From positions 45,416 through 109,415 of the forward strand of contig JBLWVX010000006.1 in NCBI GenBank assembly GCA_048268245.1: a stretch of 64,000 nucleotides of DNA. The letters run 5' to 3'. The notes under the pieces are model-generated. The model was not told where the DNA came from and ran no database searches. It worked only from the letters and a program-made list of their open reading frames with translations. This DNA is from Arcobacteraceae bacterium. GTDB lineage: Bacteria; Campylobacterota; Campylobacteria; Campylobacterales; Arcobacteraceae. Both the position numbers and the translations under genes were made by a program. Positions 13,906-23,352 of the stretch are shown piece after piece (the first letter of the stretch is position 1; each line of letters opens with the position of its first letter).

Positions 13906-14157
13906 TTATCCTTCTATTTTCTTTACGTACTCTTCCATTTTAGATTTAGGTGTAGATTTTGATGTAGGTATTTGTAGAACTTCAAATTTATCACTTCTTT
14001 CAAGATATTTAATCTCAATTAAATCCCCTACTTTTACCTCTTTTGCTTTTTTAACAGCTTGATTGTTAATAAAAACAACTTTATGTTCAAGCATATCTTC
14101 AGCAACTGCTCTTCTTTTTGTAATATTTACGGCGTTTAAAAATTTATCTATTCTCAT
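13906..14157 (-). CDS. S4-domain RNA-binding protein (Hsp15/YabO-like)
   Basis: MRIDKFL...KRRAVA...KEVKVGD. Confidence 0.88.
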   Translation of the reverse strand: MRIDKFLNAVNITKRRAVAEDMLEHKVVFINNQAVKKAKEVKVGDLIEIKYLERSDKFEVLQIPTSKSTPKSKMEEYVKKIEG

Positions 14158-14303: not shown

Positions 14304-15551
14304 ATGAGTAAAAAAGATGTTAAAAAAGTTGTATTAGCTTATAGTGGTGGGCTAGATACTTCTACTATTTTAAAATGGCTTCAAGACGAGTATAATGCTG
14401 AAGTTATTACTTTTACTGCTGACTTAGGTCAAGGTGAAGAAGTTGAACCTGCAAGAGAAAAAGCTTTAGCTTGTGGAATTAAACCTGAAAATATTTTTAT
14501 TTTAGATATCAAAGAAGAGTTTGTTAAAGATTACGTATTCCCAATGTTTAGAGCAAATGCAATTTATGAAGGTGAATATTTATTAGGTACGTCAATTGCT
14601 AGACCTTTAATTGCTAAAAAGCAAATTGAAATTGCAAATAAAATGGGTGCAGATGCAGTATCTCATGGTGCTACTGGAAAAGGAAATGACCAAGTAAGAT
14701 TTGAACTTGGATACTTAGGATTAAATCCTGATATTACTGTTATTGCTCCTTGGAGAGAATGGGATTTAAATTCAAGAGAAAAATTATTAGCATATGCAAG
14801 AGAGCATGGAATTGAAATTGATAAGAAACACTTAGATGAAAATGGAAATCCAGCAATTTCTCCTTATTCTATGGATGCAAACTTACTTCATATTTCTTAT
14901 GAAGGTTTATCATTAGAAAATCCAAATGCAGAACCAGAAGAATCAATGTGGTTATGGACTAATTCCCCTGAAGAAGCACCAAATGAAGCTGAATATATTA
15001 CAATTTCATATAAAAATGGTGATCCTATTGCTATTAATGGTGAAGAAATGTCACCTGCAACTATCTTAGAGACTTTAAATAAATATGGAAATAAACACGG
15101 TATTGGAAGAATCGATATCGTTGAAAATAGATATGTTGGAATGAAAGCTAGAGGTTGTTATGAAACTCCAGGTGGAACTATCATGTTAAAAGCACATAGA
15201 GCAATTGAATCAATTACATTAGATAGAGAAGCTTCTCACTTAAAAGATGAACTAATGCCTAAATATGCTAAGTTAATTTACCAAGGATATTGGTTCTCTC
15301 CTGAAAGAGAAATGATGCAAGCAGCTATTGATAAAACACAAGAAAATGTAGAAGGTACAGTAAGATTAAAACTTTATAAAGGTAATGTTATTGTAGTTGG
15401 AAGAGAATCAGAAAAATCTTTATTCTCAGAAGCACACTCTACATTTGAAGAAGATGAAGTATATAATCAAAAAGATGCAGAAGGATTTATTAGACTTAAT
15501 GCACTAAGATTTATAATTTCTGGTGAAAATAAAAAATACTATCATTTATAA
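14304..15551 (+). CDS. argG: Argininosuccinate synthase
   Basis: [42 protein letters not shown]. Confidence 0.98.
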
Positions 15552-15583: not shown

Positions 15584-15616
15584 AAAAAGGGCATTTTTTA
15601 CAAATGCCCTTTTTTT
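15584..15616 (+). terminator. Rho-independent terminator after argG
   Basis: AAAAAGGGCATTT-tttac-AAATGCCCTTTTT followed by more T. Confidence 0.85.
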
Positions 15617-15722
15617 ATTATCAATAAAACCTATACCCAAACTTTTTATAGTAGCTAAAATGTAACTTTTTTAGGATATAATATTATATGTATTTATATA
15701 ATTTAGAAAAAAGTGAAAATAA

Positions 15723-16817
15723 ATGAACTATTTAGAAGATCTTAAAAAAATAGTAAAAATCAATTCATATACTGCAAATAAAGATGGTGTAGATGAAGTT
15801 GGCTTACAAATGACACAATGGCTTGAAAATATAGGCTACTCTACAACTAAATATAAAAGAGAACTTATTGGAGATCATCTTTTATTTAAATCAAACAAAA
15901 AAAATGGAAAGAAAATATTATTATTAGGTCATAATGATACTGTGTTTCCAAAAAATTATTTTGAAGATTATACAGAAGATGAAAAATGGATTTATGGTCC
16001 TGGTGTTTGCGATATGAAGGGTGGAAATATTGTAGCACTAGAAGCTCTTAGAAATCTTTATAAAAAATATGGTCAAATTAATAATATTGATTTTTTACTA
16101 GTAAGTGATGAAGAAACTGGAAGTGATGATTCTAAAGATGTTACTTCTAGTTTAGCAAAAAATTATGATTATTGTTTTGTTTTTGAAGCTGCAGGTAAAA
16201 ATTTAGAAGTAGTAACTTCACGAAAAGGTGTTGGAAGATATATTGTTAAAATAGAAGGAAAAGCAGCTCATGCAGGTACTTCTTATGAAAAAGGAATAAA
16301 TGCAAACCTTGAAGGAGCAATTAAACTACAAAAATATAGTCAATTACTTGATTTAGATAAAGGTACTATTGTAAATGTAGGAAAATGTGAAGGTGGAATA
16401 GGAATAAATACAGTATCTCCTTTTTTTGAAATGATGTTTGAATTTAGATTTGATAAAAAAAGTGAAAAACAAAGAGTAATGAGTTGTGTTGAGGAAATAT
16501 CTAATACTAGTTTTGTTGAAGGTTCAATTTGTCATCTTGATGGAATAATTCAAAGAGATGTTATGGAAGAGAATCAAAAACAATTAGAGTATCTTAATTT
16601 TTTAGAAAAACTTACAAATCAAAAAATTCCTAAAGAACACAGAGGTGGAGTTAGTGATGCTAATATTGTTTCAAATTGTGGAACAATTACTATTGATGGT
16701 TTCGGTCCTTATGGTGATGGGGATCACACTTTAAAAGAAAGAGCACTTAAGAGTTCTTTTGAACAACGAATACAAATGATGACAAAAATTTTAGATTATT
16801 ATCAAAATAGCAATTAA
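15723..16817 (+). CDS. M20 family metallopeptidase (glutamate carboxypeptidase G2-like)
   Basis: GHNDTV, GPGVCDMKGG, DEETG, FEA, AHAG, GGVSD and a C-terminal His; no signal peptide. Confidence 0.88.
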   Translation: MNYLEDLKKIVKINSYTANKDGVDEVGLQMTQWLENIGYSTTKYKRELIGDHLLFKSNKKNGKKILLLGHNDTVFPKNYFEDYTEDEKWIYGPGVCDMKGGNIVALEALRNLYKKYGQINNIDFLLVSDEETGSDDSKDVTSSLAKNYDYCFVFEAAGKNLEVVTSRKGVGRYIVKIEGKAAHAGTSYEKGINANLEGAIKLQKYSQLLDLDKGTIVNVGKCEGGIGINTVSPFFEMMFEFRFDKKSEKQRVMSCVEEISNTSFVEGSICHLDGIIQRDVMEENQKQLEYLNFLEKLTNQKIPKEHRGGVSDANIVSNCGTITIDGFGPYGDGDHTLKERALKSSFEQRIQMMTKILDYYQNSN

Positions 16818-16839
16818 AATTATTTATAGAAGGGATAGT

Positions 16840-17742
16840 ATGGGCAATAGACAAATTGGTATGTGGTTATATCAAAATGGTGGTGGAGATAAAATCCAAG
16901 AAAAATTAATTAAACAATTAAAACAAAGAGATATTGATGTACTTGCTAATATAAATTTAAGAGATGCAATTGCAAAAAATGGGCATATCTTATACAAGGA
17001 TATTAAACTTGATAAATTAGATTTGTTCTTTTCTTATAATGCAGGAGAGCAAACACAATATCAAATGTATTTGTATAAAGCATTAAATCATGTAATACCA
17101 ATGATTAATTCTTATGATGCTTTTGAATTAACAGAAGATAAATTTCAAACATCTTTTCTTTTAAGGCACAACAAAATACAAACAGCTGATTATAAACTTT
17201 GTCATAGGGATGATACTCATCATCTTCAAGAAATAATGGAAAAGTGGACTAAGATGGTTTATAAACCAACTGATGGTTGGGGTGGAGTTGGTCTTACAAA
17301 AATAGAGAACCAAGAGACATTAGATATGTTAATTCCTTTTTTAAATCAGATGGATTTGAGATATTTTTATGTAGAAAAATTTATAGACTATGATAATACT
17401 GATTACAGAATTGATATTGTTGATGGACAGTTTGTTGGTTGTTATGGAAGAAAAGCAAGAGAAGGAAGCTGGAAAACAAATGTTACTAGTGGAGGAAGTG
17501 TTTTTCCTAGAGAGGTAAATGATGAGGTAATCAATTTGGCACTAAAAGCTGTTAAAGTTACAGGACTTGATATTGCAGGAGTTGATATTATTTATGATAG
17601 AAAAAAAGAAGAGTATATAGTTTTAGAAGTAAATGGAATTCCTGCTTTTGCAACACCAGAACAAGAAAAACTTGGACTTGATTTTAACGATAAAAAAATA
17701 GAATTAATAGCAAATTTAATTGATAAAAAAACAAAAAAATAA
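16840..17742 (+). CDS. RimK/LysX-like ATP-grasp amino acid ligase
   Basis: INS..AF...EDK, YKPTDGWGGVG, VEKFI, DYRI, WKTNVTSGG, GLDIAGVD, VLEVNGIP. Confidence 0.9.
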   Translation: MGNRQIGMWLYQNGGGDKIQEKLIKQLKQRDIDVLANINLRDAIAKNGHILYKDIKLDKLDLFFSYNAGEQTQYQMYLYKALNHVIPMINSYDAFELTEDKFQTSFLLRHNKIQTADYKLCHRDDTHHLQEIMEKWTKMVYKPTDGWGGVGLTKIENQETLDMLIPFLNQMDLRYFYVEKFIDYDNTDYRIDIVDGQFVGCYGRKAREGSWKTNVTSGGSVFPREVNDEVINLALKAVKVTGLDIAGVDIIYDRKKEEYIVLEVNGIPAFATPEQEKLGLDFNDKKIELIANLIDKKTKK

Positions 17743-17754
17743 GGGGAGAAAATA

Positions 17755-19257
17755 ATGGAAAAATTACCAAAGTTAGGATTTTTATATCTTGATTATGTTT
17801 TAAGATTCTTTGATCATTCAAATTTCAAAGGTTGGCCTGATAAAATAGAAGAAGTTGTTTATCATTGGAAAAATGATAAAGAAAGGTTTATAAAAGAGGT
17901 TAAAAGTAAAAAGATTGATATCTTAATTGGTAATATTCCAGCAACTGCTTATGATACATTTGTAGAAATATCTAAAGAGTTACCTCATGTTAGGTTTGTT
18001 CCTTCACTACAAACACAATTTTCAAATAAATCAAAAGAAAATGTAACTTTATTTTGTGAAAAAAACAATCTTAGTATCCCTAAAACAAAGATTTTTTATG
18101 ATAAGAAAAAAGGTTTTGAATATTTAAAAAACAAAGCCTCTTATCCTCAAATTATAAAAAGATCTTATGGACCATCTAATTATGGTGGATATTATGTACA
18201 TAAAGCTGATAATTATAATGAAGCAAAGAAATTATTAGAAAATAAGAAATATAATCCTATTTATACACAAAATGCAATTGATTTAAAATATTCAGGGGAT
18301 TTAAGAGTTATGTTAATTGGACATAAACCTATTTGTGCTTTCTGGAGATTTTCTGGTGATGGAGAGTGGATTACAAACACTTCGCAGGGTGGTACAATGT
18401 CATATGAAAATGTACCGATGAATGCTTTAGAGTTAGCAGTAGAAGCTAGTAAAGCTGCTAAAGCTGAGTATTGGGCTTGTGATATTGCCATTTGTGCTAA
18501 AACTGATAAACCATATATTTTAGAGTGTGCGACTGCATTTGCAGCCTTTCCTTATATTAGAGATTGGATTGGGCAATATTTAATGTGGGATTTTTCAAAT
18601 GGAAGATTTGGAATGCCTCATGTTCCTTTATATTCGTGGGAAGAATTAGGAAAAATTGATTCATCTTTACTTAGAACTATGAGACACATTGGGTTTAGTA
18701 AATATAAACCTTCTTGTGATGGTACATGGTATATAAATGATCCTAAAGATAAATTTGATATGTCTTTAACAGAAAAATCAATTGATTCAGATTTCCCTGC
18801 TTCAGTTAATCCTAAAGATTTACCAATTAAAAAAGAGTTAAATAAGCAAGCTTTAAAAGATGAGTTTGTTTTAGAAAGAATAAATTTCAATTGTGCTTCT
18901 CTAACTGATATTATGACTCTTCATGGTATGGAAGAGGAGTTAGCATTAGAAATACAAGAATATTTAAAAGATAACATTGTGACAGATGCAAGTGATTTAT
19001 TAGAACTTGAATCAATAGACGAACAACTTTTAAAAACTTGGGATGAAAATCTTGATGATATGAGAATTGATATAAATACTGCAAATGAAGAAACTCTTAA
19101 GAAAATTAAAGGAATTGGATCTAAATTAGCAAAAGTTATATTAGATTTTAGAAATACTTTTAATGATTTTAGTTCAATTGATGAGTTAAAACAAATTGAT
19201 GGTATAGGAAAAAATAAATTAACTCAATTAAAGTCTAGATTAAAAATAGGAGAATAA
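17755..19257 (+). CDS. Divergent RimK-like ATP-grasp protein fused to two ComEA-like helix-hairpin-helix domains
   Basis: ATP-grasp elements YPQIIK, DLRV, WITNTSQGG, WACD, ILEC; C-terminal RINFNCAS..IMTLHGM and RIDINTANEETLKKIKGIGSKLA..FSSIDELKQIDGIG. Confidence 0.82.
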   Translation: MEKLPKLGFLYLDYVLRFFDHSNFKGWPDKIEEVVYHWKNDKERFIKEVKSKKIDILIGNIPATAYDTFVEISKELPHVRFVPSLQTQFSNKSKENVTLFCEKNNLSIPKTKIFYDKKKGFEYLKNKASYPQIIKRSYGPSNYGGYYVHKADNYNEAKKLLENKKYNPIYTQNAIDLKYSGDLRVMLIGHKPICAFWRFSGDGEWITNTSQGGTMSYENVPMNALELAVEASKAAKAEYWACDIAICAKTDKPYILECATAFAAFPYIRDWIGQYLMWDFSNGRFGMPHVPLYSWEELGKIDSSLLRTMRHIGFSKYKPSCDGTWYINDPKDKFDMSLTEKSIDSDFPASVNPKDLPIKKELNKQALKDEFVLERINFNCASLTDIMTLHGMEEELALEIQEYLKDNIVTDASDLLELESIDEQLLKTWDENLDDMRIDINTANEETLKKIKGIGSKLAKVILDFRNTFNDFSSIDELKQIDGIGKNKLTQLKSRLKIGE

Positions 19258-19258
19258 G

Positions 19259-21844
19259 TTGAAACAACTTTATAGATCATACGCCCAGTCAACAGAAATT
19301 TTTAAAGATTTAGAAAAGAAGTATCCAAAGTACATCAAGCTTGAATCAATTGGACAAACTTGGGAAAAAAGAGATATAAATTTAATTACAATATCAAAAG
19401 ATATAGAAACAGCTTCAACTAGACCTGCCTTATTTTATACAGGAACTATTCATGCTAGAGAATGGATTGGTCATGAATTAGCAATTGAATTTGCAACTTA
19501 TATTTTAGAAAATCATGATAATGACCCCATTCTTAAGTTCTATTTAGAACATGCAACAATTTATATGGTTCCTTGTGTTAATCCTGATGGTTATGAATAT
19601 TCAAGAAATCATTTTTCTTTTTGGAGAAAAAACAGGCGTGTAAATGCTAATGGAACCTATGGAGTGGATTTAAATAGAAACTTTCCAATAGGTTTTGTAA
19701 AATCAACACTCACTACTTCAAATGTATATGGAGGTCCCGAGCCATTTAGTGAACCTGAAACTCAAGCTTTAAAAAAATTTGTTGAAAGTCATGAGAATAT
19801 AACAATAGCCTTAGATTATCATTCTCAAGGAAATGTGTTTTTCCCTGCTCATGATTTTAGACATGAGGATACTTTTGATACAACAGATATGAATACTTTA
19901 TGTGCAAATATGGCAGAAAAAATTAGAAAAATTTCAGGTCGAGAATATGGAATACATCAAGGGAAACCACCAGCTAAGCTTATTTCAGGAAGCGGTAGAG
20001 AATTTTATTATTCAAAAGGAATAATCTCTACTGTTGTTGAAGTTGGAACTAGAAATATAAGTGATTATTTAGATGATATGAGTGAACATATTAGAGAACA
20101 TATTCCTGCACTTTTAGCTGCTGTAGCAGAAGTACCAAACTATAGTGGAAACGGTCCTAAAAGAGTTAAATCTTTTGAAGTAATTGATATAGGTTCTTCC
20201 CATGTAGAACTAAAATGGAATTATGAAGATAAAGAAAATATATACTTCGAGATTTATAGAAGTTTAAAAAATAAGTCTTTTTGTAATGATAGCAATTTAA
20301 TAGTGAGAACCCAAAAATTAGAATTTAGTGATATTAATCTTTTTTCAAATAAAGATTATTATTATAATATTAGAGCTGTAAATAGTAAAACAGGTTTAAA
20401 ATCACCTTTTTGCCCACAAATTAAAATTAGAACAAATCTTGAATATGATGAATTTAGTAGAACTTATTATGCTAGTAAAAATGAAACAGGATATGTATCT
20501 GAAAATATTAATGATAATGCAAAACATTTTGGTGTTAACTCTTTGTTTGTTGGTGTTGATGAACATAAAGGTGTTTCTTATGCAGTTATCACTATTGATA
20601 TAAAGTCTTTACCCTCAAATGCATTAATAAAACATGCAGAGTTTAATTTATATCCTATTAATAGAGTATCAACAACAATTGAAAAATATGGTGAATGGAA
20701 TGTTGCTATAGTTGATCAAACCCAAATGGGGGATATTACCGATTTTGATGATGTTGATAATATGAAAATTATTAAATATATTGGAAGACCAACTCAATCT
20801 CATCAATTAACACAAGGTATATGGAGAACTTGGGAATTCTCAGCTATGGAGTGTGAATTTCTAAAAAAGTATGTTCATAATAATAAAATAGTATTAAGAG
20901 TTGAAGGTCCAAAAGAACTTAGAATTGGAAGAACTAGACAAATGATGCAATGGGACATAGGTTATGGTAAATTTGGTTTTGGTCTTACGTATAGACCAAG
21001 CTTAGAATTAACATATACATTAAAACCTGAAATAACTGCTTTATACCCTACTTCTGTTAATACAATAAGTAAAAATGAGATAAAAGATGATGAGATAACA
21101 GCTGGTTTTGATGAAAATGGATTAAAAATTTATTCAACTTTTGAATTTAATTTATCATCATTACCACCTTATGATAAGAGCATGATTACAAAAGCATATT
21201 TTGAGTTAAATTCAACAAAAATATATATTAAAGATGACATTAGATTTCATATTGAATTTGTCGATGATAATATTGAAAAAAATTACGAAAGTATCACAAA
21301 TAGAGAAGTTATACAAAATATTGGTTATGATGTTAGTGCAGCAGAGCTTAAGAATAATCAAACACAGTATTTCATGTTTGATACATTTGCTGAAAAGACT
21401 TTAAATGAAAAGGTAAAAGATAAAGAAAGTATTTCTTTTGTCTTAAAACCTACTTCTTCAAAAAAATCAATCAAAAATAAAAAAGTATCTTGGGAAATTA
21501 AAAATATATCTTTATCACCAAAATTAATTATTGAACATATACCAAAAAGAAGAGATAGTTTAGCTCAAGTAAAAAATGCAAAGCTAATTGAAGAAAATGG
21601 AAAAGTGAAATTAACTTGGGAAAACCCTATTGATATTGATTTTGTAGGTGTAAAAGTTATAAAAAATCCATTTAGAGAGCCTTATTCTTCTCAGGATGGT
21701 CAAAAGCTTTATGCAGGTAAAGATGATTATACTTATGATGATTTTGGAGCAATGGATATTGATAAGTATTATGCTATATTTACTTATGATGATGTTCCAA
21801 ATTATAGTAAGCCTATAATATTAAAATATAATGCAAATAAGTAA
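19259..21844 (+). CDS. M14 zinc carboxypeptidase with FN3 and duplicated DNRLRE-like beta domains
   Basis: IHAREW (HxxE), NPDG, WRKN, GVDLNRNF, SEPET, DYHSQG, VEVG; TTG start after AGGAG; FN3-like VELKW...YEIYR-type and YYYNIRAVN motifs. Confidence 0.88.
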   Translation: MKQLYRSYAQSTEIFKDLEKKYPKYIKLESIGQTWEKRDINLITISKDIETASTRPALFYTGTIHAREWIGHELAIEFATYILENHDNDPILKFYLEHATIYMVPCVNPDGYEYSRNHFSFWRKNRRVNANGTYGVDLNRNFPIGFVKSTLTTSNVYGGPEPFSEPETQALKKFVESHENITIALDYHSQGNVFFPAHDFRHEDTFDTTDMNTLCANMAEKIRKISGREYGIHQGKPPAKLISGSGREFYYSKGIISTVVEVGTRNISDYLDDMSEHIREHIPALLAAVAEVPNYSGNGPKRVKSFEVIDIGSSHVELKWNYEDKENIYFEIYRSLKNKSFCNDSNLIVRTQKLEFSDINLFSNKDYYYNIRAVNSKTGLKSPFCPQIKIRTNLEYDEFSRTYYASKNETGYVSENINDNAKHFGVNSLFVGVDEHKGVSYAVITIDIKSLPSNALIKHAEFNLYPINRVSTTIEKYGEWNVAIVDQTQMGDITDFDDVDNMKIIKYIGRPTQSHQLTQGIWRTWEFSAMECEFLKKYVHNNKIVLRVEGPKELRIGRTRQMMQWDIGYGKFGFGLTYRPSLELTYTLKPEITALYPTSVNTISKNEIKDDEITAGFDENGLKIYSTFEFNLSSLPPYDKSMITKAYFELNSTKIYIKDDIRFHIEFVDDNIEKNYESITNREVIQNIGYDVSAAELKNNQTQYFMFDTFAEKTLNEKVKDKESISFVLKPTSSKKSIKNKKVSWEIKNISLSPKLIIEHIPKRRDSLAQVKNAKLIEENGKVKLTWENPIDIDFVGVKVIKNPFREPYSSQDGQKLYAGKDDYTYDDFGAMDIDKYYAIFTYDDVPNYSKPIILKYNANK

Positions 21845-21860
21845 TACTTATTTGCATTTT
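21830..21860 (+). terminator. Hairpin overlapping the M14 peptidase stop codon
   Basis: Perfect 14-bp inverted repeat AATGCAAATAAGTA-a-TACTTATTTGCATT followed by TT. Confidence 0.55.
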
Positions 21861-21904
21861 TAAAAATCACAAGTTATAATAAACCTAAAAAATTAGGAAA
21901 TAAT

Positions 21905-22405
21905 ATGATTTTGAAGTTTAAAGAATTTTATCCAAAAATAGATTCAACTGCTTGGGTAGCACCTAGTGCTGATATTATAGGTGATGTTATTATCGGCGAA
22001 AACTCTTCTGTTTGGTTTCAATGTGTAATTAGATCAGATGTAAATAAAGTTAGGATTGGCAAAAATACTAATATTCAAGATTTATCTATGATACATACAG
22101 ATACTCACACATCAACTATAATTGGAGATAATGTAACAATAGGACATAAAGTTATGCTTCATGGTTGTAAAATTGAAAATAATTGTCTTATTGGAATGAG
22201 TGCTACTATTCTTGATGATGCAATAATTGGTGAAGGTTCTATTGTTGGAGCTAACTCTTTAGTGACATCAGGGAAAAAGTTTCCACCTAAAAGTTTGATT
22301 ATGGGAAGTCCGGCTAAAGTAGTAAAACAGCTAACTGACGAAGATGTAGAAGGCTTAATTAAACATGCAGGTCATTATGTAGATTATAAAAATGATTATA
22401 GCTAA
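21905..22405 (+). CDS. Gamma carbonic anhydrase / YrdA-like hexapeptide repeat protein
   Basis: IRSDVN, TNIQD..MIH, IGHKVMLHGC, MGSPAK. Confidence 0.92.
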   Translation: MILKFKEFYPKIDSTAWVAPSADIIGDVIIGENSSVWFQCVIRSDVNKVRIGKNTNIQDLSMIHTDTHTSTIIGDNVTIGHKVMLHGCKIENNCLIGMSATILDDAIIGEGSIVGANSLVTSGKKFPPKSLIMGSPAKVVKQLTDEDVEGLIKHAGHYVDYKNDYS

Positions 22406-22428: not shown

Positions 22429-23352
22429 TTACTTACATTGTTTATAAGACTCTTCAAGTTTAGTGTATAAAATTTCAAAGCTTACATCTTCCATATTTTC
22501 AAGATGTGAAACCATAACTACATTATCTTCTTTTCCATTCCATTCTTTGATATATGTACCTTCTTTGTATCCATTGTCTTGTCTAAATTTATTTAAACAG
22601 TTTTTTCCAATATAAAGTTTTTGTAACCAAGTAAATGATAAACCTGATACCTTACAACATCTAAAAAACTGATCAATAAATCTTTCAACACCACTAAATG
22701 ATGGCATATTATTAGTTTCAATTGCTAAAGCTATATAAGATAGTTTTTCTGCTTCTTTTACCATAAGTTTTACATCAACTTCTGATACAGCTTCATATAT
22801 ACAATGTGTATTTACTAAAGATACAGCTTTTGGTACATTTGTTTCTTGTAATATATAAGACATTAAAAAGTGCCAAATATCAACTAATTCTACATGGATA
22901 TTTTGCATATCTGGTTTTGCATTAATATTTTTCCAGTGTTTCCAAGGAGTAGAATCAATTAATTCAGCTACTTCCATATGGATACATCTAAGCCAGTTGA
23001 TTTCTTTACCAAATTTGTTTCTTCCTAACTCCCAGTTTTTGCCATTTGTTGAATCATTTAGTTCTTTTTGTAATAAAAACATTTCTTCTAATTTGTGAGG
23101 AAATGAAGATGCTTCTTCTAACAATTCTGCTAAAGGTAAACACTCTTCTACTAAGTTATCTAATGTAGCATTATTTGGTAATTCTTTCTCACCTTTAAGT
23201 AAATGAATAATTAAAGAAATAGTATAAGGAACTTCATCTTTTTCTTCCCATTCTAAAACATCAGATGGTGTCACTCCAATGTATTGCACAAAATCTTCAA
23301 TTGATAAAAATCCTAATGATTTTATGCTGTCTTTTAAGTCTTTGTATAACAA
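22429..23352 (-). CDS. dut: Dimeric (all-alpha) dUTPase with N-terminal HTH-like extension
   Basis: LQKELND, MEVAELIDS.PWKHWK, VELVDIWHF, KNCLNKFRQDNGYK, EDN: Campylobacter/trypanosome-type dUTPase motifs. Confidence 0.88.
   Translation of the reverse strand: MLYKDLKDSIKSLGFLSIEDFVQYIGVTPSDVLEWEEKDEVPYTISLIIHLLKGEKELPNNATLDNLVEECLPLAELLEEASSFPHKLEEMFLLQKELNDSTNGKNWELGRNKFGKEINWLRCIHMEVAELIDSTPWKHWKNINAKPDMQNIHVELVDIWHFLMSYILQETNVPKAVSLVNTHCIYEAVSEVDVKLMVKEAEKLSYIALAIETNNMPSFSGVERFIDQFFRCCKVSGLSFTWLQKLYIGKNCLNKFRQDNGYKEGTYIKEWNGKEDNVVMVSHLENMEDVSFEILYTKLEESYKQCK

Follow-up and report, generated by a model that had tools for sequence, protein, structure and literature searches.

A stretch of 64,000 nucleotides (nt) from the genome of an Arcobacteraceae bacterium (assembly GCA_048268245.1, contig JBLWVX010000006.1, positions 45,416 to 109,415; ~28% G+C), hereafter the window, to which the positions below refer, carries a cassette of four genes that we read, with moderate confidence, as a self-contained cytoplasmic system that adds acidic residues, most likely Glu, and trims them off again. 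In gene order, the cassette encodes an M20 metallopeptidase similar to carboxypeptidase G2 (CPG2), a RimK-like ATP-grasp ligase, a second ATP-grasp protein that ends in a helix-hairpin-helix (HhH) tail and is denoted here AGH, and a large protein that starts with an M14 carboxypeptidase domain. An earlier note made from the bare sequence of this region had described four co-oriented genes separated by 22, 12 and 1 nt, and the list of open reading frames (ORFs) gives the same arrangement, with all four on the + strand. What the analysis shows is which genes make up the cassette, that they are conserved and transferred together, which fold and family each protein has and which residues are conserved. 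None of the known systems compared below combines two ligases of the RimK/LysX type with an M14 enzyme that resembles carboxypeptidase O (CPO) and bears a CBM96-like tail and with a CPG2-like M20 enzyme. In line with the statement of the earlier note that no characterised counterpart was known, no published description of this four-gene architecture was found in the full-text literature, the coverage of which leaves out most subscription journals.

The four genes are inherited together to a large extent. A scan with one genome per species yielded 560 stretches encoding relatives of AGH, and among the best 80 of these, which were analysed as loci, all four functions are present in the same order at 64. 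Fifty-eight loci show exactly the order M20>RimK>AGH>M14, five have the complete set with either an additional RimK-like copy or an M14 gene that is split, and one (L035) has an M20-RimK-like fusion; of the others, 14 are cut by contig ends or lie on short contigs and two are without an adjacent M20 gene. When 61 related genomes were searched with each of the four proteins, AGH had strong matches (E below 1e-150) in 27, and the phyletic pattern comprises 26 genomes with four genes, 31 with none and 4 with a partial set. Of 20 loci fetched from these relatives, 17 contain the complete set in this order, also at sites with unrelated flanks. The conservation of the four genes as a group, which the earlier note had proposed as a check on its reading, is thus borne out.

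The surroundings of the cassette are lineage-specific: argG and a gene for a gamma-carbonic-anhydrase-like protein in Arcobacteraceae, rimM-trmD-rplS in loci of the Sulfurimonas type, and unrelated genes elsewhere. Clustering of three flanking genes per side at 97 loci revealed no conserved fifth gene and, in particular, no conserved transporter, regulator or precursor, which upholds what the earlier note had said of this one operon. The hosts named in the records belong mostly to Campylobacterota (Arcobacteraceae, Sulfurimonas, Sulfurospirillum, Nitratifractor and Hydrogenimonas), and the complete cassette is found also in Thiomicrorhabdus, a metagenome-assembled genome (MAG) of Desulfuromonadales, Desulfuromusa and Photobacterium, in the last case on a replicon of 2.1 Mb at a locus with 53% G+C. 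In the maximum-likelihood tree of the AGH core, Thiomicrorhabdus and Desulfuromonadales fall inside the Campylobacterota clade (support 99/98), and Photobacterium forms a long branch of unsure placement. The cassette travels as a unit between lineages of marine sulfur bacteria, the tree covering the AGH core, that is, one of the four genes. It is under strong purifying selection, with ~50-90% identity across three phyla.

The co-inheritance of the four genes is strong, though not absolute. Two relatives (G050 and G047) possess all four genes but in unlinked form, with AGH away from M20-RimK-M14; G012 (locus L024) has AGH and M14 alone; G032 (97% complete) has the M20, RimK-like and M14 genes, and AGH was not found; in G045, M20 and RimK-like genes occupy a 4.2-kb contig and no other cassette gene was found; and G037 (83% complete) has M20 and M14. 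These partial sets and the fusion at L035 suggest two ligase-peptidase pairs, M20 with the RimK-like ligase and AGH with M14, rather than a strict linear pathway. The fusion (L035:7486-9501, in the complete chromosome record of an Arcobacter sp. MAG) is a frame of 671 amino acids (aa) with M20 at aa 66-358 and RimK at aa 466-656; it may be real, or a stop codon may have been lost in the assembly.

Other departures from the common arrangement were seen at individual loci. In G032 (L110:4771-9670), the RimK-like gene abuts the M14 gene with a gap of ~20 nt, and a gene for a 103-aa protein with an ORF6N domain (KilA-N-like) sits between the M20 and RimK-like genes. Extra RimK-like paralogues lie in or beside the cassette at L028:12702-14068 (the same site as L077:13226-14592), L016:5173-6123, L103:5812-6762, L066:8059-8985 and L086:8031-8972. 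At L028/L077, the paralogue is followed by a free-standing HhH protein of 145 aa, both located 3′ of the M14 gene, and this small protein is 44% identical to the tail of AGH.

The M14 protein gives rise to the prediction that acidic residues are removed. Its catalytic domain is recognized by Pfam (Peptidase_M14, aa 14-265, 207.9 bits versus a cut-off of 21.6) and aligns with carboxypeptidases A4 (CPA4), A2, A1, O, B and T (E 1e-28 to 1e-23); by fold, VIA gives Z 27.2 for procarboxypeptidase B and 26.6 for carboxypeptidase T (CPT), followed by CCP5 (19.0), MpaA (14.5) and Csd4 (14.2). The motifs HAREW, WRKNRR, NRNF and YHSQGN pair in the alignment with the CPA4 residues H69/E72/H196, R127 and N144/R145, and the zinc and catalytic motifs plus [VTA][VI/A]EVG are present in 87 of 87 homologues; Glu270, in the numbering of carboxypeptidase A (CPA), is assigned by motif only, the HMMER alignment ending before it. 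The domain begins at residue 14, and there is no activation pro-domain. As described in PMC9925722, specificity in this M14 subfamily is governed by residue 255, at the base of the pocket, which is hydrophobic in CPA, Asp in carboxypeptidase B (CPB) and Arg in CPO, and Arg255 makes CPO specific for acidic C-terminal residues. In the cassette protein, Arg247 (nt 19997-19999) is placed by HMMER opposite Ile255 of CPA4 (SGSGREFYY pairing with SGSSIDWAY); among 87 homologues, the position is occupied by Arg in 86 and by Lys in the remaining one, and it is invariant in 20/20 aligned sequences. Because of this Arg at CPA position 255, the M14 enzyme is predicted to remove acidic C-terminal residues.

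The assignments of the four proteins to families given in the earlier note are all supported by Pfam and NCBIfam, with one correction: the M14 carboxypeptidase domain makes up just the first third of the fourth protein, and the other two thirds, ~565 aa, form a conserved tail of the order FN3, CBM-like, CBM-like, FN3, where CBM stands for carbohydrate-binding module. The protein is conserved end to end (mean column identity 64%), and the tail is modelled with high confidence. The first CBM-like module (aa 396-587 in the comparison) matches a chondroitin-sulfate-binding CBM (8wab_B; VIA Z 18.1, 170 residues aligned, root-mean-square deviation (rmsd) 3.4) and the alginate-binding founder of CBM96 (7vbo_A; Z 15.0, 166 aligned), and Atlas feature matches point to CBM96 clusters (0.93); the second is detected by the DNRLRE model NF033679 (aa 611-758, 36.1 bits versus a cut-off of 34). 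The founding CBM96 is described as being of type B, with a Lys/Arg-lined groove in which an internal stretch of the alginate chain is bound (PMC9971899). From the modelled folds, we infer that the CBM-like modules of the cassette protein may hold an extended or macromolecular ligand.

Both ATP-grasp proteins belong to the RimK/LysX clade, in which the characterized enzymes attach either Glu or 2-aminoadipate to the carboxylate of a Glu. The RimK-like protein is recognized by PF08443 (83.2 bits versus a cut-off of 21) and matches solved RimK by sequence (E 5e-15); its Mg site, D249/E263/N265, is invariant in the alignment, and E-x-N is kept in at least 96 of 98 homologues. The pre-ATP-grasp domain Rimk_N (PF18030) has no Pfam match in either cassette ligase. 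AGH has lower scores (PF08443 56.8 bits versus 21; TIGR00768 64.8 versus 143.4; NF007764 15.9 versus 331), and its closest solved folds are ArgX, LysX and RimK (Foldseek E 3e-12 to 1e-10; mean pLDDT of the model 79). It is without the Asn-Gly of E-x-N-G, the corresponding residues being E257-C258-A259 (nt 18523-18531): alignment of its profile with that of the RimK-like protein by hhalign (probability 97.2) places ILEC--ATAF opposite VLEVNGIPAF and shows that the TNxxxGG loop is kept, as are the positions of Lys, Arg, Asp and Glu. Of the Mg triad, an acidic residue plus E-x-N, Asp243 and Glu257 are kept and the Asn is gone. All 95 non-identical AGH homologues from the loci studied here have [LI]ECATAFAA. 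A possible orthologue of AGH or of the RimK-like ligase, the ATP-grasp domain-containing protein NIS_RS04835 of Nitratiruptor sp. SB155-2, shows mild induction by both Cd and Cu in PMC10092412 (log2 fold change 1.03 and 1.29, respectively).

AGH is a narrow family. A search of 1.84 billion representatives gave 8726 matches at E<=0.001, and among the best 150 of these, about five near-full-length clusters with 56-67% identity, many fragments and one 43%-identical protein of 287 aa cover the AGH core, most of the others matching the HhH tail alone. In the window protein, the tail is recognized by HHH_3 (83.8 bits versus a cut-off of 27, best at 437-496) and scores below the cut-off of TIGR00426 (49.1 versus 53.1). 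A degenerate HhH unit is retained in the AGH forms inspected, and the canonical unit is lineage-specific: forms of 440-453 aa, which account for 28 of the 95 homologues and include those of the Sulfurimonas type, Thiomicrorhabdus and Desulfuromonadales, are represented by seven inspected sequences of 440-449 aa that all keep the degenerate unit only, and forms of 471-484 aa have one HHH_5 or HHH_3 unit each (3 tested). Pfam detects no HhH domain in 5 of 7 further AGH forms, namely four of 440-449 aa and the 482-aa form of Photobacterium. The tail of the window protein is acidic, with a net charge of -11. Given that the canonical HhH is not universal and that this tail is acidic, DNA binding is, judging from the sequences, neither a family-wide property nor assured for AGH of the window, and the suggestion of the earlier note that the target might be associated with nucleic acid is weakened. 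The free-standing HhH protein at L028 marks the tail as a separable accessory. Binding of polyanions or DNA by the HhH tail and the CBM-like modules was considered and is unsupported by net charge, which leaves it a bare possibility. The linker that precedes the tail contains in every subtype seen a motif of acidic and hydrophobic residues and Pro (DSDFPAS in the window, EEWPSExWN[YF]Q in forms of 471-484 aa and DD[IV]PEP in forms of 440-450 aa), which may serve in docking or as a site of modification.

The M20 protein is recognized by both Pfam domains of its family (M20 64.7 bits versus 24.6; M20_dimer 45.4 versus 21), its best solved relative is CPG2, an enzyme that releases Glu (E 2.4e-29), and the metal motifs GHxD[TV]V, GxxD[MD]K[GS]G and [ST]DEExG[SG] are present in 88 of 88 homologues. 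None of the four cassette proteins contains a signal-peptide-like or membrane-spanning hydrophobic stretch by the Kyte-Doolittle scale (maximum mean over 19 residues, 1.40), in agreement with the remark of the earlier note on signal peptides, and all four look cytoplasmic.

Taken together, these features suggest the following scheme. The RimK-like ligase, and probably AGH as well, would spend ATP on linking Glu, through its amino group, to a carboxylate on the acceptor, and further Glu residues would then be joined to the growing chain by the ligases. The M14 enzyme would trim acidic residues off the free C-terminal end by means of its Arg pocket, in place of Ile in CPA and Asp in CPB, and its two groove-type CBM96-like modules, together with the two FN3 domains, could keep it attached to a long or macromolecular substrate. 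Removal of the last Glu from the acceptor, or else the splitting of a small released product, would fall to the CPG2-like M20 enzyme. The acceptor could be a protein tail or a free poly-acidic peptide. Glu as the added residue, the direction of the steps and the chain-like substrate are inferred. The glutamylation-like writer and eraser enzymes proposed in the earlier note are thus supported by the clade of the ligases and by the Arg that predicts acidic specificity of M14; the weaker part is the second ligase, which is without the nearly universal catalytic Asn.

A number of observations weigh against this scheme. Every functional assignment in it rests on homology, and the M20 protein scores under every NCBIfam cut-off (PRK07338, 193 versus 357 bits; PRK06133, 164 versus 349). 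The RimK-like protein is just below the cut-off of TIGR00768 (137.7 versus 143.4) and far below that of the S6-ligase equivalog NF007764 (61 versus 331). AGH may not be a conventional ligase, given the loss of the Asn of the E-x-N Mg motif in 95/95 homologues. The active-site loops of the M14 model have pLDDT under 50 (111-160, 189-205, 234-244 and 262-271), so that the placement of Arg247 rests on the alignment, not on the model, and the equivalent of CPA Tyr248 is not conserved among the M14 homologues. The CBM-like modules are near neutral (net charge ~-4 to +5 and -10 to +3 in 20 homologues), which is why nothing beyond an extended or macromolecular ligand is read from them. In addition, the four enzymes need not all share one molecule as a substrate because of the partial cassettes in G012, G032 and G045. 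A complex prediction for the RimK-like protein with AGH 1-335 gave a score of 0.00, and, having been made without controls, is uninformative either way.

Among the alternatives, a small-molecule system, in which a Glu dipeptide or a short oligo-Glu tail is attached to a metabolite, osmolyte or cofactor and recycled by the peptidases, appears unlikely but has several points in its favor. N-acetylaspartylglutamate (NAAG) or beta-citrylglutamate, N-acetylglutaminylglutamine amide (NAGGN) and the polyglutamate tail that MyfA/MyfB add to methylofuran would be the models. CPG2, to which the M20 enzyme is closest among solved structures, takes Glu off non-peptide acyl groups, and synthesis and breakdown genes sharing one operon, as they would here, are typical of metabolite pools. 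Moreover, genes of amino acid metabolism (argG, argH, proC, pheA/tyrA) adjoin the cassette in some lineages, the named hosts are largely marine, sediment or vent organisms by record titles, and MyfA and MyfB are reported as successive glutamate ligases acting on a coenzyme (PMC8141765). The RimK-like protein scores on the MptN and CofF models (156.3 and 71.3 bits) as well as on RimK, but the specific families all remain below cut-off (350 and 300, respectively, and 24.4 versus 569 for NAGGN synthetase), neither a transporter gene nor a further biosynthetic one is conserved in the surroundings, and an M14 protein of 861 aa with FN3 domains and two groove-type CBM-like modules is hard to square with a substrate the size of a dipeptide; because this protein is so large and multi-domain, a small-molecule role fits less well than the addition and trimming of acidic residues on a longer acceptor. 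The scores of the RimK-like protein on the models for NAGGN synthetase and cyanophycin synthetase (46.6 versus 850 bits) are far below cut-off; a mapping to metabolism of the cyanophycin type had been named in the earlier note as a possible refutation. About as unlikely is that the cassette makes and degrades a cytoplasmic poly-acidic polymer, similar to poly-alpha-glutamate and possibly branched by the second ligase, as a reserve or an ionic or osmotic buffer of marine sulfur bacteria, in the manner of cyanophycin; the pair of ligases would then be the polymerase, M14 a processive exo-depolymerase held on the chain by the CBM96-like modules, and M20 the enzyme that clears the last fragment, with the HhH-type tail tethering the machinery in some lineages. 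A somewhat better, if still doubtful, case can be made for AGH as an impaired ATP-grasp paralogue that serves as an adaptor or regulator, with its basic core, acidic linker and HhH-like tail recognizing the substrate or a partner and all ligation left to the RimK-like enzyme, which would be compatible with the add-and-trim scheme. The deletion of Asn-Gly throughout the homologues, the narrowness of the family and the genomes in which AGH is unlinked (G050, G047) or not found (G032) while M20-RimK-M14 stay together are as this would predict; on the other side, the Lys of IIKRSYG, the SYGPSNYGG loop, Arg184, TNTSQGG, Asp243 and Glu257 are invariant or nearly so across phyla, some ATP-grasp enzymes outside the RimK/LysX clade use other Mg ligands, and G012 retains AGH and M14 without a RimK-like gene.

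Two further explanations draw on the neighborhood and the families of the peptidases and appear far less probable. Breakdown of murein or other cell-wall or imported peptides by M14 and M20, with re-use of the pieces by the ligases, is suggested by the match of the M14 fold to MpaA and Csd4 and by the many dipeptidases among M20 enzymes; it is, however, very unlikely, given that the M14 catalytic domain is far nearer to CPB and CPT (Z 26-27) than to either of these proteins, that the ligases are of the RimK/LysX clade and not of the Ddl type (Ddl models 34 versus 243 bits), and that no gene for a Mur ligase, epimerase, transporter or amidase is conserved nearby. Least probable of all is a module of the LysW carrier type, with LysX/ArgX-like loading of Glu or 2-aminoadipate, LysK-like release by M20 and a link to arginine through argG. 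It would account for ArgX and LysX as the best structural matches of AGH, for an M20 enzyme in the operon and for argG upstream in Arcobacteraceae, argH in L011 and proC in L092. Yet a search for LysW (TIGR01206) that was positive in 4 control genomes found none in G000 (99.3% complete), the LysX equivalog gives 102.1 bits for the RimK-like protein and 54.9 for AGH versus 275.6, the LysK-type model gives 48.8 versus 163 for M20, genes for LysZ, LysY and LysJ are absent from the cassette, the argG neighborhood is lost outside Arcobacteraceae, and the M14 protein would be left without a role.

With respect to the acceptor in the favored add-and-trim scheme, ribosomal protein S6 is improbable because the genome has a separate RimB-RimK pair: G000 encodes, on a contig other than that of the window, a true RimK (C13:35038-36389, L115:2039-3387; NF007764 360.6 versus 331 bits, Rimk_N 122.8 bits) directly downstream of a RimB-like retropepsin (PF05618; 64.9 bits on the RimB model, below the cut-off of 200). 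Ribosomal protein L19, encoded just upstream of the cassette in 16 of the fetched loci, was set aside as a target on account of its basic C-terminus. A hunt for acidic C-termini among the G000 proteins produced a long list that did not discriminate between candidates.

The layout of the locus is summarized in the table. Of the two edges proposed in the earlier note, the upstream one, the hairpin of argG, stands as a terminator-like structure; the hairpin at the downstream edge is a perfect palindrome that is terminator-like on the - strand alone, as the tail on the + strand has too few T residues. No relevant Rfam match to a riboswitch or leader RNA was obtained between positions 14000 and 23500 at E<=1, the sole match, elsewhere in this interval, being a chance-level small RNA (E 0.57). 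The reading frame of the M14 gene is open for just 3 codons 5′ of its start. None of the four proteins matches a known anti-phage defence system (0 PADLOC families at E<=0.001).

Features of the four-gene cassette and its borders in the window
Feature	Position	Strand	Remarks
argG			directly upstream of the cassette; NF001770, 638 bits
Terminator-like hairpin of argG	15584-15614	+	13 pairs, then a T run; upstream edge of the cassette
A+T-rich leader, 108 nt	15615-15722	+	holds GGATATAAT, a -10-like box, ~40 nt 5′ of the start codon
M20 metallopeptidase, CPG2-like (P0001, 364 aa)	15723-16817	+	Pfam Peptidase_M20 and M20_dimer
RimK-like ATP-grasp ligase (P0002, 300 aa)	16840-17742	+	Pfam RimK
AGH (P0003, 500 aa)	17755-19257	+	RimK ATP-grasp and HHH_3, the latter in two stretches
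AGH aa 1-335, ATP-grasp core	17755-18759	+	RimK/LysX clade; net charge +8
AGH aa 336-375, linker	18760-18879	+	pLDDT under 50 at 343-346 and 348-376
AGH aa 376-500, HhH-like tail	18880-19254	+	degenerate acidic unit ~381-433, then canonical ComEA-type unit 437-496
M14 protein (P0004, 861 aa)	19259-21844	+	TTG start; Peptidase_M14 and DNRLRE domain
M14 protein aa 1-296, catalytic domain	19259-20146	+	A/B/T-like; no pro-domain or signal peptide
M14 protein aa 297-395, FN3-like	20147-20443	+	VIA Z 12-13, rmsd ~2 over 86-95 residues
M14 protein aa 396-590, first CBM96-like beta-sandwich	20444-21028	+	VIA and Atlas
M14 protein aa 591-766, second CBM96/DNRLRE-like beta-sandwich	21029-21556	+	NCBIfam; beta-rich model with high pLDDT
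M14 protein aa 767-861, C-terminal FN3-like	21557-21841	+	VIA Z 12.6, rmsd 2.1
Perfect 13-bp palindrome	21830-21858		overlaps the M14 stop codon; downstream edge of the cassette
Gamma-carbonic-anhydrase-like hexapeptide gene	21905-22405		next gene after the cassette; own promoter-like site 21851-21880

In two metatranscriptome runs of one study, short contigs match portions of each of the four genes, with 0 to 3 letter differences in the pieces listed for them. Coverage is patchy, and no piece spans a gene junction with at least 31 letters on each side; the contigs are a hint of expression only, and carry-over of DNA is possible. RNA contigs of both runs join position 14847 to position 17916 through 31 foreign letters, with one side fitting over 22 letters; this joint most likely comes from a contig of another organism or from a chimera. 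Two ORFs outside the set of cassette genes may be mentioned. Nothing supports an antisense ORF of 90 aa within the AGH gene (18618-18890, - strand) as a genuine gene, and the similarity to it in L009 and L016 is that expected opposite a conserved gene. Beyond the gamma-carbonic-anhydrase-like gene lies a gene for a dUTPase of the dimeric type (22429-23352, - strand; PF08761 at aa 87-262), with an N-terminal extension of ~85 aa and a score of 205.9 bits, below the NCBIfam equivalog cut-off of 300.

Eukaryotes use reversible glutamylation as a major regulatory code, and to our knowledge the action of RimK on S6 is the sole case understood in bacteria. If the present reading is true, the cassette would be a second and larger system of the reversible-glutamylation type in bacteria. 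If the acceptor is a protein, this would amount to a new bacterial post-translational code; if it is a free chain, to a new intracellular polymer, along with enzymes that could be used to make and trim poly-alpha-glutamate. The eukaryotic TTLL/CCP (M14D) system follows the same logic, with Glu added by ATP-grasp enzymes and acidic C-terminal residues removed by M14 enzymes, and there several ligases and several peptidases divide the work. However, the cassette ligases are of the RimK/LysX type and not of the TTL type, the cassette adds an M20 enzyme, and its M14 domain is A/B/T-like (Z 27 versus 19.0 for CCP5) and, starting at residue 14, is without the N-terminal beta-sandwich of the CCP type.

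In cyanophycin metabolism, too, a synthase and a depolymerase occur together, with an ATP-grasp enzyme extending a poly-amino-acid backbone and a second hydrolase splitting the dipeptide; the cassette, in contrast, has neither the Mur-ligase-like domain of cyanophycin synthetase nor an S51 cyanophycinase. The LysX/ArgX-LysW-LysK route likewise employs an ATP-grasp ligase and an M20 hydrolase, whereas the cassette has no modifying enzymes that would act between loading and release and possesses an M14 protein. In Methylorubrum, MyfA and MyfB are described as two glutamate ligases that act in turn, one in the first additions and the other in the elongation of a long chain; the acceptor is a coenzyme of methylotrophs, peptidases do not figure in the gene set as given there, and the likeness to the cassette drawn here lies in the succession of two ligases (PMC8141765).

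CPO (M14A) belongs by sequence to the same subfamily as the cassette M14 enzyme (5mrv, E 1.9e-25), shares Arg255 and is likewise described as having no pro-domain (PMC9925722, PMC6214572). It is, however, a single catalytic domain, an extracellular or glycosylphosphatidylinositol-anchored digestive enzyme of animals, whereas the cassette protein is bacterial, predicted to be cytoplasmic and extended by the ~565-aa FN3/CBM-like tail. RimK/RimB, known as RimABK in Pseudomonas and from RimK of Escherichia coli, with S6 as the substrate, resembles the cassette in that an ATP-grasp alpha-L-glutamate ligase is found beside a peptidase that trims Glu tails (PMC11957791), the two forming a writer/eraser pair in the cytoplasm. 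The differences are that the eraser in that system is a small retropepsin-like aspartic protease, as opposed to M14 and M20 in the cassette, and that it has a single ligase, not two; furthermore, RimK/RimB is present separately in G000, and the cassette ligase fails the RimK equivalog and has no detected Rimk_N domain.

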